Shown one piece after another: positions 23,205 through 48,565 of a DNA stretch of 64,000 nucleotides. Under the pieces are notes generated by a model. It made no database searches, was not told the origin of the DNA, and saw only the letters and a program-made list of their open reading frames with translations. The DNA comes from Lingula anatina (lineage: Eukaryota > Animalia > Brachiopoda). The stretch is taken from assembly GCA_051362555.1 (NCBI GenBank), contig CM120644.1:7076954-7140953 (forward strand), written 5' to 3'. Position numbers and translations under genes: made by a program. How positions within the stretch are numbered: position 1 is the stretch's first letter; the number at the start of each line of letters is the position of its first letter.

Positions 23205-29962
<6,758 letters not shown>

Positions 29963-30260
29963 TTGAAACATCTTCGTTTTCAGTCATTCATGAAGTTTAC
30001 ATTCACGGTCCCATTGTTTCTTTCTCCGCTGTTTCTCTCCCACAACTTCAGTTATTCCCTGTTACACAACTTCAGTTATTTCCTGTCACTCTTGAAACGG
30101 GGCGTAAACGAATATAAACATGAACCCCGCATATCAGTGCTTGTGCTCTATGTGGTGTTGTCGGTGTGGTGTCTCAAGGGGGCTGCCATGTTGCTTCTCG
30201 TGATCTCGCGGATTTTCCCGCTTGCAACTTATCAAATTAAGGTTATATCATGATATGAAT
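29963..30260. promoter_or_regulatory. Putative bidirectional promoter (METTL5 / C1GALT1 locus)
   Basis: Divergent ATGs at 29962 (-) and 31084 (+). A locally CpG-rich patch contains a YY1-like GCCATGTT and TCTCGTGA/TCTCGCG motifs at ~30185-30210. Confidence 0.5.
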
Positions 30261-31083
30261 CATTCAGCGAATCATTACATTGTGAAGTAATTAACAAAGT
30301 TATTACTCTAATTCAAGCGATACTTTTCGGTAAATGTTGCCTATATAACATGAAACTTTGTAAATTTCAGGAAAATTTATATTTTCTTGTAAAGCGCCCT
30401 CTAGGACAGAAATAGAAAATATCAAAACATGTCTGCGCCCATGGAGAAGGAGGTGTTTTAGTAAAGCCTAACAAATATCTAGAGTAAGTATTGCATTTGA
30501 TACTATTTACACATTTCTACATTCATGCTCACGTGATTTTGCTTGGAGTGGCTGAAATGATTGGGGAGGAACTGTACGCTTGCGCGTGTGTTTGTGAATG
30601 CATGGTTGTTGGAGTACTGTAGAGTATGAGATGCAGGAAGGAGGGGGGGGGGAGGGCGGGGTCTCCATCGCTATCTTCATGTGCTTTGTTTTTATAGACC
30701 AGCAAACCACCGCTAAATACTGTTATTGAAGAACGATTTGTATTGTGACCAATGTTAAAGCCAAATATGAATAACTAGGTAAACGGTAGCTGAGACTCTT
30801 AAAGTTACTACATTTACTTGTAGGTGTGGCCAGAGTTAATTTTCTTTAAAAACATTTTAATGAAATATAAAAAAGGATAAAAATTCCAGAATCCATGCTA
30901 CTAGCAAAACGGGCTTAACTTGCTGTGCATGATGTCAAGTGCAAACCATCTTGCACAGTTTCCTCTTGCCAAATAGTACTTAATTAATATACATGTATAT
31001 TGCACATTTATAAATACATTTTTTCTCTTTTTCAGTTTTACCGAACACTTAACATGCTAGTACAATAAAAAGGCAATTTACTT

Positions 31084-33196
31084 ATGGCAGCAGTGAGGCG
31101 CTTTCTCTTTTCATCTACAACAGTGACTTTTGTCTTGGCATCCTTGATTGGAGCTCTGTGTGCCTTCATATTCTTGAAATATGACAGCCTAACCCAAGCC
31201 TCAGCTTCTATAAAGAAACAGAAGCTGCCACACACAACACTGTATAAACATTGGTTGAAGAACAGAGGACTTTTTCAGGTTCATGATTTCAAGGTGGAGG
31301 AAAAGGATCTTGCTAAGGTGTGTTTTGTAAGCAATTCTTTACACTAACCTTAAATTAGTCTACACATGTATGCACAGGTACAATGTGTGCCACACTGTGG
31401 TAACTTGCCTGCATTCTGTATTATTGGAAAACGAGATTTGCTTCAGGTGACAAAAATTTTGATGAATTTTTAGTGTAGAATAAATTGAAGAGCAGTTGGA
31501 ATTCTGCCTTTTTTTCTTTTTTTTTCATCTCCTAAGGGAGGATACAGTGTTTAAGTTGATGACTCTTTAAAGGCAATATGGATCATTATTATTATAGTTA
31601 CTGTATGGGTTTCAACATATTCCTCCCGAAGCTGAAGGAAATCTTCATATCTAGATCAGCCCCACCCCCTGCCCTTGAAAACACATTCTGGTTTGTTCTT
31701 CTTGTACTAGCTACTTAAAACCAAAAATTCTGTACTAGTATCTTGCTTTTGCAGACATTAAAGCTGGAAAAAGAAGACAAATACTTGTACGATACCACTC
31801 CCATCCTCTGCTGGATATTATGCACAGAAGAATGTATCTTGGACAAAAAAGTCAAAGCTCTCTGGGAAACCTGGGGAAAACGCTGCAACAAACTGCTCGT
31901 CTTCAAACACAAAAATACTCCTCTAGAGCACAAAGATGTGCCCGTCATCGATCTCAAGCACAAAGTTGACACCTGGAACGCCATGGAAGAGACACTTCAA
32001 CACCTGCACGTGTTCTACAGAGACAAATATGACTGGTTTTACAGGGCCGAGGAAGACACTTTCACTGTTGTGGAGAATCTGCGTTATTTTGTATCTGTGT
32101 ACAATGCCACAAGTCCCCATTATTTCGGCCACGTGTATAAAGAATGGCGGAGTTTATATAACTTGGGTCAGGCTGGCTTTGTGATCAGTAGAGGTGCGTT
32201 AGATATCCTGTATCAGGGCATAGAGAAAGACCAGTTGTGCCCCTACTCAGGCACGGCTGACATCATGCTAGCAAGGTAATTCTTTAAAATATTCATTATT
32301 TGGTAAATGACTGTAAATTGCTTTTTGCATTGAGTATTCTGTGCTGTGTCCATCTTCAGTGTTTTGATTAGCTGCTTTTTGGATAGAAATTTTAATGACA
32401 TGAGCTGCTCTAGTCACCTATGATAATAGTTATATAATTTTTTTCTTCAGAAAACGGGTCATTGATAGGAGGCTAAAATAATTTGTGACATTCAATTAAA
32501 AATATTTACATACATTTTGGAAATGCAATAACTGCATGGCTCTGTTGAACATTACCAAAAGAAAAAAAATTACCTTATCCAAAAGGGTTTTCTAGTTTTG
32601 CTGCATGGGCATACAAGTACATGTACCAGGTTATAAGTGAACAAAAATGTGAGCAATATAACTGAATTGATTGCATATGTTTTTCAGCTTGATACTGGTG
32701 CATTATACATTGGGAAGTTATCAAAATAAAAGTTATCATCAGTTTTATCAGTATGATACAATGTTTTAAATAATATTTTAAAAAATGAAATTATCTCAAA
32801 CCAAAAGCAAACAGTTTTTATCAAATCTATGCATTTATTATACAGGATGATCATATCTCTTAACAAAAGCTTACATTTTGGACATCTTTCACAGCTACTT
32901 GTGATACGTGTAATGGGGAACTTCTTTTTGTACCTCAGTCAATGGATTGGAAGCATCTTGGGGATTTACAGTCATTTACAGTCATTTACCAAATACGTCT
33001 TAATATATACAAATATATTAAATAAGAACTTTCCTGTTCAAGGTGTCTGAAGCAATACCATGTGATCCCAGGGGATACAGTTGACACCCTGGGGCGGGCA
33101 AGATTCCTAGTCTACACCCCTGAAGAACACCTCATTCCGGGTCATATTAACTGGAACAACGCCTACTGGTACAAAAGTCAACATATTAGTAAAAAT
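31084..33196 (+). CDS. C1GALT1-like (GT31) cassette A with degenerate catalytic motifs; predicted to splice to the shared terminal exon 38584-39012
   Basis: Exons 31084-31317, 31755-32275, 33043-33196 give 303 codons ending in phase 0 at a GTAAGT donor. Type II TM; [59 protein letters not shown]. No private CCS/SFHY exon was found before cassette B. Confidence 0.85.
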
Positions 33197-34083
33197 GTAA
33201 GTACTAGTATAATGTAAATACTCTTGTTTTACATGATACACTCAATGTTTTGGAAATCAGCATGCTAGTAATCATAAAACCTTTGAAATTATTGGTTTTT
33301 GCATTTACTGGTAGATTTAAATAGTTTAGCAGTATTGGAATATATCTAATAGAATAAAAAGCAGTGTGTGCCTATCACATCTGTATTAATTAGCCTAATA
33401 ATTTTTTGCTAACTGAATTGCAAGGGAATATGAACCATGTTAAACTTCATAACATTTCTTTTTACAATTATTGTATAAAATTTGAAAAGTCAGTTTTTTT
33501 TTATTATCAAATTTCATCAACTTTTTATGGATTGTGCTTGCATTTCTCTGTGCAAATGGTTATTATTAGTATTATTTTTGTTGTTATTATTATTATTATG
33601 TTGCTGTTGTTGTTGTTGTTAATTGTTGATATCAGGAAGGTGTGTTTGGTTTAATGTGAAATACAGACAGTTAATCTACCATTATATAATGTACATACCT
33701 GTATATATTCCATTACCCTGAGATTCTGATATTATTGTTCAATCTTAAGTAGTAAAAAAGATTTAATGCCTAGTACATACTGGTTTGAAACTACCTTGTA
33801 ATAATGGTCTTCACTCTTCGGCTAGTTAGTCAACCTACTTATTCTGTGGACTTCTACTGGAATTAAGATGACTTTTTTGAGGTAACAGAATTAAAGTTTT
33901 ACCACTCAGCATGATAGTTTGTCTATGTTCCCTTACCAACAATAAAGGCTTTCAGTTGCGGGAGTACTCTGGCAACATTTTACGTTCTGTAAGGGTTGTA
34001 ACCTAGACTGGCACCCATATTCCCATTTATACACTGTACATGTACAAAGATTTCCTTCCCTTTTGATCAACAATTTGAAACAA

Positions 34084-34114
<31 letters not shown>

Positions 34115-34467
34115 ATAGAATTACATTTTAAAAGCCGCACACATATAGACTTTACGTTCAGACCTTTGTGCCATAAAAATGTTATAATTTTAGTCTATCT
34201 TTATTTATAAATTATTCATGAATGCATTGTAATAACACAGTCCAGTATCACGTGAATTAATACAGTTATGTAAATGTATGAAAATTGACAGAGGTTTAGT
34301 TGAATCACATTGAGAGTTATTACAAGCTTCACATCTCTGCATATATGTATTATAGATTTTAACTGTGTGGTAAGTGTCATATTTATTGAAAAGTTGTGAG
34401 TTACCGATTGTTCTCGTCTTGGATATATCGCACTACGTCAAGCGTAACTGTCCACCGATACAACAGC

Positions 34468-37400
34468 ATGTTGAAATGGAGTGGCCGTATTTCTGTGTCA
34501 TTTACGGTGGGCATTTTCTTCGGTTTTGTGGCCACCTACTGGTCTATGTCCTCCGACAGGGCTCATGACAAGAAAACATGGATTAAGTCGTCGAAATTTG
34601 TCCCGGACGACCCTTTCAGCCATCAAGAGCCGGTGGGAGACGATGCGGGACCGAGAGACCCCGTTAAGTGGCACGACGAAGAAATGCACGACTCCGGTAA
34701 GTAATGCTACGGGTCACGACATTCAAATTGAACTACGTGTCAGGTATTGAAGAGGCACAAAATATGCTACTGAGGGATGTGTAGTCCTGCAATTCCTAGA
34801 TATCAATGAAAGGGGCTTCTGTTGGTAGCCACCTCTCCCGTTTCTCAATTATTTGTAACGTCTTCCTTGTTACATAGCACTACAAGAAAGTTTTTATCAC
34901 TGTCAGACGTTAATGCATTAACTAAAGCAAAAACCAGAATTAATATTCAAAGATGCCCTTTATCACAGTAAGATTTCGATTCTTGGCAATGTTCATAAAC
35001 TGCCACATGCAAAGTATATAAATGTGTGTAACTGGGGGCAGAACACGCAATAAGATATAGTCAATTTTCATAACTTACAGGTCTATGCCCCTGCTTCCCA
35101 TTTAATGCCAGTGGGTCACATATCTCACAATTCATATTAAATTATTGCAAGCTTTAAGACTGAATTATTTAAGCCTCAGATAATGACCAATTACATGCAT
35201 TTAGACAGACATATTCTCTATATAATTAAGATATAAATCAGTATCACTACAAATTTCTTTGGTGCAGCATTGCCTTATAATTTCTTAGCAGCCCTACAAA
35301 AATCTTATCTAGCTACTAGTATAGTAGGCCCTTCTTTGTAAAATATTCATGCAACTGTCCTTTGAGAGCACTAGTAATGTTGATAGTGAGTGAGTTTACA
35401 CTGAACACGTATTCAAAGCCTGAACAAACACTGCCACATTTATAGCCCCACAATCAGCCTATGCAAACACAAGGTGGCTGTATCTCTTTCTGTTGAAAAC
35501 ACGACTTGCGGATTTATGACTCAAACATTTTTGTATCACCCTGGTATTTAAGATGTGTAGTAACTGTTTGTGCAGTAAGTCCTCTGAGTCGTGGTGAATA
35601 AATGGTTCTTTGATGTAGTTATGTTTTGTAGGTGTCACATGATTTTAAGTATAGGGTTGAATTAAAAGACTTAGCATGGCTTAATGTACTGCAATTTATC
35701 GAAATTACTTTGAAAATTTAATACTAGTACTATATTTAACAGGTCTAAATAAATTTATTCAAGAAATAGCCTCTATGTCAAGCACTGGGTTAATTGTGTC
35801 TGTCTAAACATTTAACACCTTTATCAAATCACTTAATCATGAACTCATTTAAAAATACAAGGCATTATTATAAATATTTTTGTCAAAAAATAATGGAAGT
35901 GTACATAAACAATAATGTTGCACCCTTCTTGCTTTCACTGATATAAAAATGTTGAGTGGTGCCCTCTACAGGAGGCACCAATGACGGCGCATTCCCCATC
36001 CCCAAGATGCTCCCAATCCCAGGATTCATAATGTGTTTTGTTTGATTTTAGACCCAGACTCGCCCGCCAGGAAACTTTACAATGAGGTGAAAGTCCTATG
36101 CTGGGTGATGACATCCCCAGATAACTTTGAGTCGAAGGCGCAGCATGTCAAGGCCACATGGGGCAAGCGGTGCAATAAACTCCTCTTCATGAGCTCCAAG
36201 GCTGACCTCCTCCTTCCCGTCATCAAACTCCCAGTGGGAGAAGGAAGGTCGAATTTGTGGCGAAAAACTCGTGAGGCTTTCAAGTATGTCTATGAGCACC
36301 ACTTCAAAGACTTTGACTGGTTTTTCAAGGTGGACGATGACACTTTTGTTGTGATGGAAAACTTACGCTTGTTGTTGAAACGTTTCGTCCCAGACAAGCC
36401 TTATTACATAGGCAGGCGGTTCAAGCCTTATATTGATCAGGGTTACATGAGTGGTGGTGCCGGGTACGTCTTAAGCAAGGCCGCCCTGGAGCTCTTTGTG
36501 GTCAAGGGACTGGACGACACGTCTAAATGTCCAGGTGGGACTGGACCAGAAGACCTCAACATGGGAGTTTGCATGGAGAAACTTGGGGTGATGGCGTTGG
36601 ACAGCAGGGACAAGTTGGGTCGGGAAACGTTCCATCCATTTCAACCAGAACATGTGCTGATACCTAATTATATTCCAAGAGGCAACTGGATATTTACCTA
36701 TTCTTATTATCCTTATAAAGAGGTTTGTTATTTTATATATGGACAGTGAATGTGGAGCTAGATTTGTGTAATATGTTTATGAAGAATTTAGATTTTTATT
36801 TTCCAAAAAGTTAATAACCATTACTATTGGTAGCATGATTTATTTTCCTGTCTTTTTATAGATATGAAAGAAATTGAAGGAAGTTAAAGATACACATTAA
36901 ATATCATGGGTAAAACAGGTTTTCTCTTTCTCTTCTAAAGAGATGAACTTCTTACCATTATTATGCCCACCCTTCAAAGAAGTGGGGATATGTTGCTTTG
37001 CACATTTTATTCAGTCTGACAGGTAATCTGTAACAAGAAATTGTCTGACAAATAAACAAAGAACAAATTGGTCTACTGTCCTCATATTTGGGAGAGAGGT
37101 TTGTCATCACATGTAGATGACCACTGAGTAAATTGATTTTGAGATCAGTATGTTTAAGGTATAAGTCACATTGACCTACAACAGAAAAATCTTGTCTGAC
37201 CAATAAATACATAACAATTTGTCCTGCCAGGGAAACATCTGTGTGTGACAAACACCTCTTGTCATGCACTTGCTGTTTATTTGCACTATCAAACCATCAT
37301 TAACATTACTAATGTAATGAAAAGATGCAAATTCACCGCATAACAGCTCATTCCAAATACTAACATTTAGTTATAAAATTACCACAGGACAGACAATAAA

Positions 37401-39012
37401 TATTTAGGGTATTTTATTGTCTGCCCCATGGCAAGTCTAGTCATTTCTTCCTCTTGTCTACGTGTCCAACAGGGCTTCAAGCCTCTGGCATTCTTAAGGG
37501 GTCTTAGTGCAAGTAGGTGATTATACAGAGACAGTGAACTTTGAATTTTATTGCCAGCTTCCTCAATGACCATACAGAGGAAATGCTATGAATATTTCAT
37601 TTAAAAGTTAGATGTTCATTGCATAGTAAAATAAGGTACTATAGGACTGAAACAATTTTCTAAGCACGCACACATCCTGAAAGTATTTACCGATTGTTGG
37701 GGTGGATGTTGGTGGAAAAAAATGAAAAATGTTCAGTTTTTGTTGCTGCAAATGGCTGTCTGTTACAGGTAGATTGCTAAAATTGTATATGTGTTACATG
37801 TTTCATTTGGGTTATATAGAACTGAACTAATATTACATTATCATTTAGTTTACTTGTACATTCCCTTCCTTGTCAAATAAGAGGAAATAAATCCAGTCCC
37901 ATTGCATATTATAACAACTCCAGCCTTACACTGTCACTGGGGGGAATGGGGGGGGGGGGCTTTAGTTCAAACTTACCAGTAAACATTTATTGTTAAATTT
38001 CATTGACTGAATGCAGCCTGGTTCTCTGCCTCTTACAAAGGAGAGGGAAGAGGTTTTCTCCTGTCCTGCTTATAATTAGCTTCAGGTCTTTGGTGTATTT
38101 ATAGATAGATAGCATGTGGGCTTATTAGTGGTGAATATTTTTAGCTCATTGCATGTAAAACATCCATTAATAGAGACTTAAGAGAGATTATGTATGAAAT
38201 GTCTGTTATTGGTGAATTCAGTCAGATTGTGGGTGTAAGGTCCATGAATAATGACTGAGCCCTTAAATGACTGAATATACACTTCATATTTGTTTTGTAC
38301 ACAGGCATTTAATGTATTGAGTATGAATTAGTAATATTATATGGACATTTTATATATTACCATATTATATGCACATTATTCTAAACATTTTGAAAATTTA
38401 AAAGTCAGCTGGAAAATTGTTTTAAATATATATGGTGTTTTTCTTTTCTGTTTTAGATATTGCTCAGTTATGCTGCCAACAAGTCACATCCCCTCAGAAG
38501 AAAAATATCATTTTATTACATTTGTTCTCAAATTTTTAGTATCAGTCTGTAACATATTAATTTTTCTGGTTCTTTTCCCACAGGGTCCAGAGTGTTGCAG
38601 TGACTACGCCATCTCATTTCACTATATCTCTCCCAATATGATGTATGTGATGGAATACTTGATCTACCATTTAAGACCACATGGTGTCAGCACCAAGCTG
38701 GTCCTCCCACAGGAAGGACACACAGACAGACTCACACAGCAGGGGGTCCAAGACAAGCCATCAGTGGTTGATGGAAAATCTGAACAGGATTTAGACAAAG
38801 GCGCTTTAGACAAAAAGACAGACTCTCAAAGTGCTAGTGATAAAGCAAGAGAGGATGTAGAAGATAAACAGGATAACAGGTTGAAGAAAGAAGAAAATCA
38901 ACAGGGTGAAATAAAGTTTAAAAATGCAGGCGACTCACATACATTGGGCAAAAATTCTCCTGAGAAACTAGTGAAAATTGTGTCAAAATCTGTAAATCAA
39001 CATGGCAGTTAG
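34468..39012 (+). CDS. C1GALT1: Core 1 beta-1,3-galactosyltransferase (T-synthase), ~442 aa
   Basis: Exons 34468-34696, 36052-36722, 38584-39012 in phase. Motifs [67 protein letters not shown]. The three-coding-exon layout matches the canonical C1GALT1 structure. Confidence 0.93.
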
Positions 39013-41095: not shown

Positions 41096-42586
41096 TTATG
41101 GCTTACACATCAGCTTGAAAATTAAATGAGCGAGAGTTTTCCCAATGTCATTTCTGTACAAGTCCGGGTTATTCATGGCCTTACTACATAAAAAATGGTG
41201 GCTGTCACAAACTTCGTTCATTCTAGGATTAGCCACGTAAAAGCCATCCACAATCTCAACACTGTATTGCTGAAGTTGTCGAGTAAATATTTCATTAACA
41301 GCTGTCAACATGTAATAGTTTGAATCTTGTTCCCCACAAGGACTTGGGAGAATATTAAGATAAATCAAGCGAGGCGCATACGGCCTCATTTTCTTTTGCA
41401 TAATGGGCAGAAATTTGAGGAAAACCGGAACATCCTGTTGCAGAAACTTTTTGCTGCTCTCAAAAACATTTGCCCAAATTCCAAAATTAACCAGAATAAC
41501 TTGATTTGTATTTAGTGCTTGACCTGCAGAATTCATCACAGATGAAATGTGTCTCATTGTATCATTAGAAAAAGGGGACCACTTAAATATCTGTTTTGTT
41601 GCGGTCTCGAATTGTTTCCTTATTTTTCTACTCTCATGACGAACATCCTTTTGAAACTGTTTCAAAATGATGCTTCTCAGATACTCACTAACTCTCCTAA
41701 GGTGAGAATCGCCGATTATTGTTATATTAATTCTGTCATAACACCGTAAGAGGTCTTTATCAGACGTGAACTCAAATGGACAGCCATCAGACGATCCCCA
41801 ATATAACTTCCCGCCATCATTCCACCAGCGTCCCATCATAAAATCGTCGAGGGTTTTAGAATTGCAAGAACTTTGCTTGTAATCTGTCTCCAACACTGCC
41901 CCTTTCTTTTCGGGGCATTTATTAAAAGTAGATATTACCTTGTTGATTCTATTTGGCCAGCATATCTTCTCCCAAAAGCGATGCACACCAATCCGTGGAT
42001 GATGCTTGTATGCCTCAAAACCAGTATAGTCAAAATACACAGTGCCCTTGACACAGCCAGTAATTTTTGGACAAAGAGCGATATAACTGCCGTTGTAAAA
42101 GTCCGTCACTGGACACGTGAGTATTTCTCTTCCATGCAGTTCGATTCGAAACCCACTGCCTCCCAAAGAACTCTGTGGCGGCTTTTCTGAAGTGATAACG
42201 CTTTCCCTGATGAATACCACGAACTCGTTGTCGGAAATAGTGACGGCGATGGTATGGTTCACATTCGGGGACCTAGTCGCATCGCACACATGTTGATTTT
42301 CACAGTGATTCCAAAAATGCAACAATTGCTCGCTCTCTGATGGCCCATTCCTAATCCATAAGTTGCCATTTGTTCCTTTCATTAGGTCAAATTTACCATC
42401 ATTCGCGTATTTTAATCTGACTGAGTTTTCGTCGATTTTTTGGAGATTTTTTTGTCGCGAATTTCTATCCAAACCAATCCCAAAGAGATGTAAATGTTGT
42501 CGATCAAAAATAAAAAGAATACCCACATATATTATTGTTGCAAGACATGCACATCCGATAATCAGGATAATCTTATGCAGTCCCAT
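41096..42586 (-). CDS. NXPE/PC-esterase-like SGNH acyltransferase/esterase, type II membrane, copy A1 (496 aa, single coding exon)
   Basis: N-terminal TM; GGSGFRIEL, VTDFYNGSY, IIGDSHLRR (GDS), NFGIW, and C-terminal CDSHH (DxxH). Confidence 0.8.
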   Translation of the reverse strand: MGLHKIILIIGCACLATIIYVGILFIFDRQHLHLFGIGLDRNSRQKNLQKIDENSVRLKYANDGKFDLMKGTNGNLWIRNGPSESEQLLHFWNHCENQHVCDATRSPNVNHTIAVTISDNEFVVFIRESVITSEKPPQSSLGGSGFRIELHGREILTCPVTDFYNGSYIALCPKITGCVKGTVYFDYTGFEAYKHHPRIGVHRFWEKICWPNRINKVISTFNKCPEKKGAVLETDYKQSSCNSKTLDDFMMGRWWNDGGKLYWGSSDGCPFEFTSDKDLLRCYDRINITIIGDSHLRRVSEYLRSIILKQFQKDVRHESRKIRKQFETATKQIFKWSPFSNDTMRHISSVMNSAGQALNTNQVILVNFGIWANVFESSKKFLQQDVPVFLKFLPIMQKKMRPYAPRLIYLNILPSPCGEQDSNYYMLTAVNEIFTRQLQQYSVEIVDGFYVANPRMNEVCDSHHFLCSKAMNNPDLYRNDIGKTLAHLIFKLMCKP

Positions 42587-42743
42587 GTCTCAAACTTGAC
42601 ACATATATGTATGAACTCGATGGACGTTTGATTCCTGGAAGAAGGAGTGCATATCTCAGCGATGCCTGCCAGACTAATATCCCGTATACACTGTATGTAC
42701 TAGATAGCAGAGAATGTCCTTGATTCAATATGCCAAATCTTAA

Positions 42744-48130: not shown

Positions 48131-48565
48131 CTAACTTCTAAGATACTCACTTTCTGAAGTGATAACGCTTTCCCTGATGAATACCACCAACTCGTTTTCG
48201 GAAATAGTGACGGCGATGGTATGATTTACATTCGGGGACCTAGTTGCATTGCACACATGTTGATTTTCACAGTGATTCCAAAAATGAAATAATTGCTCGC
48301 TCTCTGATGGCCCATTCCTAATCCATAAGTTACCATTTGTTCCGTTCACGAGGTTATATTTTCCACCATTCACGTACATTAGTCTGGCTGAGGATTCTTC
48401 GTCGTTTTGAAGATATTTTCTCCGGGCATTTCTTGCCAAATCCTTCTTAAAGAGACCAAGATACTGTTGATCCGAAAATAAAAGTCGAGTGCTCAAGCAC
48501 ACAATGAATACCGTGATACACGTACTTGTACATCCGATAACCAACAAAATCCCATTTAGTTCCAT
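47545..48565 (-). pseudogene. NXPE-like pseudogene: type-B 5' end joined to type-A 3' end, ~490-bp internal deletion, frameshifts
   Basis: MELNGILLV.. start; the deletion at ~48133-48151 removes the GDS motif; single-base insertions near 47629 and 48037; 3' end matches copy A1. Confidence 0.85.

Follow-up and report, generated by a model that had tools for sequence, protein, structure and literature searches.

A probable Cosmc-lineage paralog shares the last exon of the T-synthase gene in the brachiopod Lingula anatina

The 64,000-nucleotide stretch of Lingula anatina DNA analysed here (the window; assembly GCA_051362555.1, contig CM120644.1, positions 7,076,954 to 7,140,953) is eukaryotic DNA with about 37% G+C, and it contains a locus with two products that end in the same exon. 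The downstream product, B, has the sequence of an intact T-synthase (C1GALT1), the core 1 galactosyltransferase with which the common O-glycan begins. The upstream product, A, is a degenerate paralog that is likely non-catalytic and appears to belong to the lineage of Cosmc (C1GALT1C1), the folding partner of the vertebrate enzyme. We propose that A may assist the folding or dimer assembly of B, and we regard this picture as a whole as about evenly balanced between right and wrong. The new element is an expressed, degenerate, probably Cosmc-lineage paralog that shares the last exon of T-synthase in a protostome. The features of the locus are as follows.

30281..30483, plus strand: 5' non-coding exon of transcript A; the end is set by a splice joint, and the start is approximate (lower edge of a depth bin).
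31036..31317, plus strand: first coding exon of A, coding over 31084-31317 from the ATG at 31084; cytosolic tail MAAVRR (R5/W polymorphic), type II transmembrane helix with one Cys, and stem.
31755..32275, plus strand: exon 2 of A, a degenerate GT-A core.
32049-32057, plus strand: E177-E178-D179 in exon 2 of A, replacing DDD.
32103-32111, plus strand: sequon N195-A-T in exon 2 of A.
Within exon 2 of A, plus strand: clade signature H204/W209/N214, with D247 (catalytic-base position) kept.
33043..33196, plus strand: exon 3 of A, with a phase-0 donor spliced to the common last exon.
34380..34467, plus strand: putative internal promoter and 5' untranslated region of B, inferred from CpG content and RNA read starts, within the last intron of A.
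34468..34696, plus strand: exon 1 of B, with ATG, transmembrane helix and stem.
36052..36722, plus strand: exon 2 of B, an intact T-synthase core with D171-D172-D173 (36333-36341), YMSGGAG and E243-D244.
38584..39012, plus strand: last exon of both A and B, with the CCSD motif, the metal-binding His and Tyr (H313/Y314 of B), a dimer-interface helix (interface as described in PMC9065035), an acidic low-confidence tail and the stop.

The B protein has 442 amino acids from three coding exons, all joined at GT..AG, and the A protein has 445 amino acids from three coding exons of its own plus the last exon of B. Because A matches the L. anatina RefSeq record XP_013399321.1 (isoform X1) and B matches XP_013399330.1 (isoform X2), this gene structure is already in the RefSeq annotation, where both isoforms are named T-synthase. 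Exon 3 of A closes on a phase-0 donor that matches the position of the last intron of B. In a six-frame search of the 64 kb window we found a single exon encoding the CCS and ISFHY motifs, and no private last exon for A.

To follow the transcripts, we used four RNA runs carrying the L. anatina species label (X1, X2, X4 and X7), of which X1 and X2 come from one study and X4 and X7 are shallow, mapped to positions 30000-38400 of the window. Every intron of A and B within this interval was spliced at GT..AG boundaries. The joint 30483->31036 (GT..AG) was supported by 5 reads in X1, 6 in X2 and 8 in X7, and the joint 34695->36051 from exon 1 to exon 2 of B by 21 reads in X1 and 23 in X2. Reads from A exon 3, with loose ends at 33197, run on into the opening 30 bases of the last exon (8 reads in X1, 22 in X2), and reads from B exon 2 run into the same 30 bases (22 reads in each of X1 and X2); this 30-mer is unique within the window. 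A and B are both expressed, at RNA depths of the same order, and each transcript is spliced to that last exon. That A is a pseudogene, or ends at the read-through stop behind exon 3, was ruled out because its RNA splices to the last exon and there is almost no depth past exon 3. Reads of B begin in the bin 34380..34467, no joint from the A exons to B exon 1 is listed, and the CpG observed/expected ratio is 1.2 over 34380-34760 versus 0.26-0.34 in the flanking introns. B appears to start from this CpG-rich patch inside the last intron of A, so that the two products would have separate promoters. Among the variants listed from RNA, all 17 in B exon 2 were synonymous, and 5 of 13 in A were non-synonymous. 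The intronic stretch 32294-32327 of A also attracted reads in all four runs, with loose ends on both sides; these probably match a transcript from elsewhere.

B retains the DxD motif, the glycine-rich loop, the catalytic Asp of xED, the C-terminal His and CCSD. It matches PDB 7q4i with an E value of 4.5e-107, every active-site residue checked is retained, and B clusters with canonical T-synthases in both trees described below. By its sequence, B is an intact T-synthase. In the region corresponding to the Cosmc-binding one of vertebrate T-synthase, B agrees with a bird enzyme at 11 of 15 positions, a figure that does not discriminate, since 10 or 11 positions agree in 62 of 112 homologs.

The residues of A were then compared with a canonical set of 57 T-synthases, with roles taken from the Drosophila structure (PMC9065035, section 10). 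About nine T-synthase-invariant positions differ between A and B. At positions invariant in all 57 enzymes, A has K158 changed to A, the Lys two residues before DxD to R, D181 to E, D182 to E, a Met to N, S220 to L, a Gly of the glycine loop to Q, E254 to A and W300 to A. The equivalent of R152 (also 57/57) is probably changed, the alignment being loose there, and that of Y304 is K (Tyr in 54 of 57). The positions lost in A vary freely across 26 A-like proteins. The equivalents of D183, Y218 and D255 are kept, and H324 and Y325 come with the common last exon. Where an active T-synthase has an intact DxD motif and uridine diphosphate (UDP) and acceptor sites, A has EED and altered equivalents of K158, S220, E254, W300 and Y304; its DxD and donor-binding motifs are degenerate as in Cosmc, with the loss partial in that the D183 and D255 equivalents stay. 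A has lost most UDP- and acceptor-binding residues, and it is likely non-catalytic. The predicted structure of A is a GT-A fold with a mean predicted local distance difference test score (pLDDT) of 77 and 7q4i as its best match. The single Cys in its membrane helix is not conserved across the A clade, and 14 of 23 A-like proteins have a sequon at the same position as A.

The residues that A keeps could also be read as those of a working enzyme. A would then be an active glycosyltransferase with another donor or acceptor, making for example an invertebrate-specific O-glycan, and would borrow the last exon only for the His, the Tyr and the dimer helix in it. Among A-like rows, 22 of 26 retain D183, 19 of 23 retain D255 and all 26 have an aromatic residue at Y218; the clade has conserved residues of its own near the acceptor site (His in 25 of 26, Trp in 23 of 25, Asn in 24 of 26); and the fold, with the pLDDT and best match given above, is intact. 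However, the UDP-binding residues K158, R152 and D182 and the Mn ligand D181 are unconserved in the clade, and inactive vertebrate Cosmc, compared by eye, also keeps ED at the catalytic-base position. We consider an active A unlikely.

To place A among its relatives, a full HMMER scan was run with A exon 2, and the best 150 of its 2292 matches were examined. For about two dozen of these 150, the score against A equals or exceeds that against B; they carry a broken DxD and the His/Trp/Asn signature. The named members are a mayfly protein (KAF4519281), Branchiostoma XP_078655588 and XP_019636087, and the N-terminal domain of a Glandiceps model. Word-based homolog searches recovered A relatives as only 1 of 145 candidates and 4 of 2197. 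A careful unrooted tree was built on the region without the common tail from 32 of 69 rows, and the same rows were used for the approximately unbiased (AU) test. In this tree A lies inside a 12-row protostome group (support 96/89), and the 12 rows together with amphioxus XP_019636087 split from all 19 DDD enzymes with support 88/89 and in 92% of 200 bootstrap trees. A quick tree of all 69 rows agrees with the split between the A group plus amphioxus and the DDD enzymes. That A is a recent or Lingula-specific copy of B was rejected, a sister pairing of A and B having a p-AU of 0.0005. A well-supported subgroup (P0196, P0198, P0245, P0254, P0272, P0273 and P0292) includes the mayfly protein and has the motifs most like vertebrate Cosmc; it is a candidate arthropod Cosmc family, which would be relevant to insect-cell expression work.

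The amphioxus protein in this split, XP_019636087, is labelled C1GALT1C1 by Petit et al. 2021 (PMC8022947, supplement file 1, row 66). In the B. belcheri RefSeq annotation its tail of 260 residues is identical to that of the T-synthase XP_019636086, while the heads are about 32% alike; the identity is known from the annotation only. The two accessions are consecutive and lie on a contig of the same size. In the hemichordate Glandiceps talaboti, the 719-amino-acid model XP_077978998.1 (P0150) places an A-like domain immediately before an intact T-synthase-like domain, and may be either a true fusion or two merged tandem genes. Among 28 tailed proteins without DDD, only Lingula A and the amphioxus isoform have tails matching a T-synthase, in a set that lacks most of the same-species partners. 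Ten A-like exon products end at the intron position used in A, so sharing of the last exon is mechanically possible throughout the clade. The T-synthase exon product P0008 and the A-like exon product P0286 have the same figure for their longest contig, 2,985,016 bases, and the two may be linked in another animal.

Compared by eye with the vertebrate Cosmc rows in the supplement of Petit et al., the arthropod-like members share CI(I/V)LVK, a G-x-x-WK insertion before ED and the tail TF(H/N)G..MH..YRL. Because A shares fewer of these motifs, its own link to Cosmc is one of clade membership. For the mayfly protein, Atlas ranks two vertebrate Cosmc clusters third and fourth, just ahead of T-synthase in a near tie. 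PDB searches found no Cosmc chain, and a single metagenome match to a vertebrate Cosmc motif was dropped as a chance match in bacterial-looking DNA. No report of a shared Cosmc/T-synthase exon or of a protostome Cosmc was found in the literature outside subscription journals, and in the main text of Petit et al. the words 'isoform' and 'retro' do not occur. We judge it likely that A belongs to the Cosmc lineage. A preliminary description of this DNA had suggested that A could be either an independently evolved or an ancestral equivalent of Cosmc. The former, taken as a local copy of B, falls with the AU test, and we favour an ancestral Cosmc-lineage pseudoenzyme over an independent invention.

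How A might act on B can be pictured as follows. A and B would be products of an ancient tandem duplication, older than the protostome-deuterostome split, and Lingula A would have lost its own last exon. The private exons of A would match the part of Cosmc that binds the client, and the common exon would provide the oligomerisation helix by which T-synthase forms its obligate dimer. A would then pair transiently with nascent B in the endoplasmic reticulum (ER) through these identical elements and aid its folding or dimerisation. Hanes et al. (PMC5493369) reported full chaperone activity for the N-terminal 256 residues of Cosmc and assigned oligomer formation to its C-terminal part; in A, the border between private and common exons falls near this domain boundary. 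Helix 9 and the C-terminal loop of T-synthase belong to its obligate dimer interface (PMC9065035), and both lie in the common part. A lead toward the need for a partner is that Biomphalaria T-synthase was reported inactive when produced in yeast and E. coli. We put the proposition that A acts on the folding or assembly of B at slightly below an even chance, and a strict need of B for A seems improbable to us.

Alternatively, A could be a stable non-catalytic subunit that accompanies B to the Golgi in a heterodimer and adjusts or reduces the activity of B, in the way that CHPF acts on CHSY, and not a short-lived ER chaperone. The last exon, identical in A and B, includes part of the T-synthase dimer interface, the next fold matches of A are CHSY3-CHPF heterodimers, and the sequon position is kept in A-like proteins at the frequency given above, with no fixed ER signal found in A. 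Against this, Cosmc, the closest characterised relative, is ER-resident (PMC2500138), and N-terminal elements, in which A resembles B at only about 28-30%, account for much of the T-synthase interface. We consider a stable subunit quite unlikely.

Several observations weigh against A being a Cosmc-lineage partner of B. The RNA reads joining A to the last exon come from two runs of one study and are seen as loose ends, with no such ends listed for X4 or X7. Vertebrate Cosmc is in none of the trees, and A is tied to it by a single amphioxus protein on a long branch (2.7); the careful tree is unrooted, the 88/89 split is unstarred and the bootstrap is unsettled. The His/Trp/Asn signature is only partly shared, the amphioxus protein and most vertebrate Cosmc rows having the His without the Trp or Asn. 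A is also less degenerate than human Cosmc because it keeps D183, Y218, D255, H324 and Y325. In Atlas, A finds T-synthase clusters first, with a template modelling (TM) score of 0.92 versus 0.83-0.85 for Cosmc (the query included the common tail); the mayfly protein scores 0.97 with both Cosmc and T-synthase. In a second amphioxus annotation the Cosmc-like protein ends in a last exon of its own (its accession is near that of the T-synthase, on a contig of the same size), and the mayfly gene is separate, with the mayfly and other arthropod-like members having their own last exons. Finally, the invertebrate T-synthases that have been assayed worked with no chaperone added, and that of C. elegans did so even in Cosmc-deficient LSC cells, where its expression was normal (PMC2500138, PMC11005171); mollusc T-synthases were active in Sf9 cells.

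Some of these points would suit a different origin, in which A comes from an ancient family of protostome pseudoenzymes with no relationship to vertebrate Cosmc, its grouping with amphioxus is due to long-branch attraction and B works without a partner. The sharing of the exon would then have arisen twice, or be read-through splicing in amphioxus. The long branches, the unstarred split and the private last exon of the Cosmc-like protein in the second amphioxus annotation are in its favour, as is the frequency with which sequons are absent by chance (see below). However, the same gene order or linkage is found in the brachiopod, amphioxus and the hemichordate model, and the arthropod-like members share the short motifs with vertebrate Cosmc noted by eye. 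We think an unrelated family very unlikely.

The preliminary description had reached a chaperone for B by another route. It stated correctly that B lacks any N-x-S/T; among the 14 Asn of B we found neither this sequon nor N-x-C. It was also right that A carries one sequon (N195-A-T) and starts with MAAVRR. It went on to take the absence of sequons as the vertebrate, Cosmc-dependent pattern, and here the comparison with other proteins gave no support. Of 20,000 whole-protein shuffles of B, 20% had no sequon, as did 23% of lumenal and 46% of catalytic-region shuffles. A lumenal sequon is absent in 7 of 47 named invertebrate T-synthases (6 of the 46 others when Lingula is set aside), namely those of Lingula, Haliotis, Capitella, Nomia, Osmia, Diprion and one Branchiostoma, and the catalytic core is without a sequon in 21 of the 45 invertebrate enzymes in which it could be delimited. 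Among vertebrate T-synthases, 6 of 10 have a sequon, all six from snakes, in a small and snake-heavy sample. The absence of sequons as a sign of chaperone need was rejected, being common by chance and not confined to vertebrates; for B it is ordinary, weak evidence that does not discriminate for Cosmc dependence. The glycan explanation of Cosmc independence was itself offered with the words 'may suggest' in PMC2500138, and PMC9065035 doubts it, holding that glycans may not be the explanation.

The N-terminal RR of A was likewise set aside as uninformative about an ER signal. Basic residues ahead of the membrane helix are common in type II proteins. Codon 5 encodes Trp (R5W) in 11 of 18 reads of X1 and 13 of 21 of X2, but in neither of the 2 reads of X4 and none of the 10 of X7, so the RR is neither fixed nor diagnostic. 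What survives of the preliminary reading is its conclusion that A is a candidate partner, by virtue of A being expressed, spliced to the last exon of B, degenerate and on the side of the amphioxus C1GALT1C1.

Taken together, the data allow a broader reading in which Cosmc predates vertebrates. The bilaterian locus would have been a Cosmc cassette upstream of T-synthase with a last exon that could be shared. Lingula and amphioxus would keep this ancestral shared-exon state, arthropods would keep a free-standing copy, and the intronless vertebrate Cosmc would be a retrocopy of an A-type transcript. Each Cosmc-type protein would act as chaperone to the T-synthase of its own animal, and some of the invertebrate enzymes reported to work without a chaperone would in fact have been helped by an overlooked homolog in the insect cells. 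The whole of this scheme, including the retrocopy origin and the chaperoning, strikes us as doubtful.

According to papers published between 2008 and 2025, a Cosmc homolog is not known from invertebrates or from the animal under study (PMC2500138, PMC9865085, PMC11005171, PMC12467441), and Petit et al. (PMC8022947) alone extend the family, to amphioxus and Hydra. If the lineage assignment of A is right, protostomes carry a Cosmc relative filed as 'C1GALT1 isoform' or 'C1GALT1-like', and the picture of invertebrates without Cosmc changes. An enzyme and a pseudoenzyme that differ only in their 5' exons would make the origin of a private chaperone from its client directly testable, and the locus would let glycans, the dimer interface or a partner be weighed as the cause of Cosmc dependence.

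The surroundings of the locus hold further features. A METTL5-like gene, with its first coding exon at 29861-29962 on the minus strand (PDB 9ohl/6h2u, E 7e-6), lies head to head with cassette A, and opposite-strand RNA at 30000-30280 suggests a bidirectional promoter for the two. Downstream, an intronless open reading frame of 497 amino acids at 41096-42589 on the minus strand has a hydrophobic N-terminal stretch and a weak NXPE4_C match below the cut-off (E 0.004). Near-identical translated stretches recur at about 41450, 47900, 51300 and 53900 and at 48300, 49750 and 54800, which suggests tandem segmental repeats downstream of the locus.

Compared with known systems, A resembles vertebrate Cosmc in being a GT31 paralog of T-synthase with a broken DxD, a His after the motif III Gly, a CCSD region and type II topology, expressed alongside the enzyme. 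It differs in having three private coding exons plus the intact last exon of B, one DxD Asp and a core sequon, whereas the vertebrate protein is encoded by a single exon and ends in a degenerate C-terminus of its own (PMC8022947). Since alternative last exons, at the least, exist for the amphioxus member, a single coding exon with its own C-terminal domain is probably particular to vertebrates. That member, B. belcheri XP_019636087/88 (XM_019780528), is like A in its degenerate core, in a sequon at the same position and in a RefSeq last exon shared with XP_019636086. It is about 33-35% identical to A, and it has a private last exon in another annotation whereas Lingula A has none in the window. 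The active-site residues checked in Drosophila C1GalT1 (PDB 7q4i) are all present in B, and A has the same predicted fold. The mollusc T-synthases (Biomphalaria, Pomacea, Crassostrea) carry one or two sequons and were reported active in Sf9 cells without added chaperone, whereas B carries none. The CHSY3-CHPF pair (PDB 9q8z, 9o4g) is, like B and A, an active GT31 enzyme with a degenerate paralog; unlike them, its members are encoded by separate genes, serve another pathway and are 18-19% identical to A.

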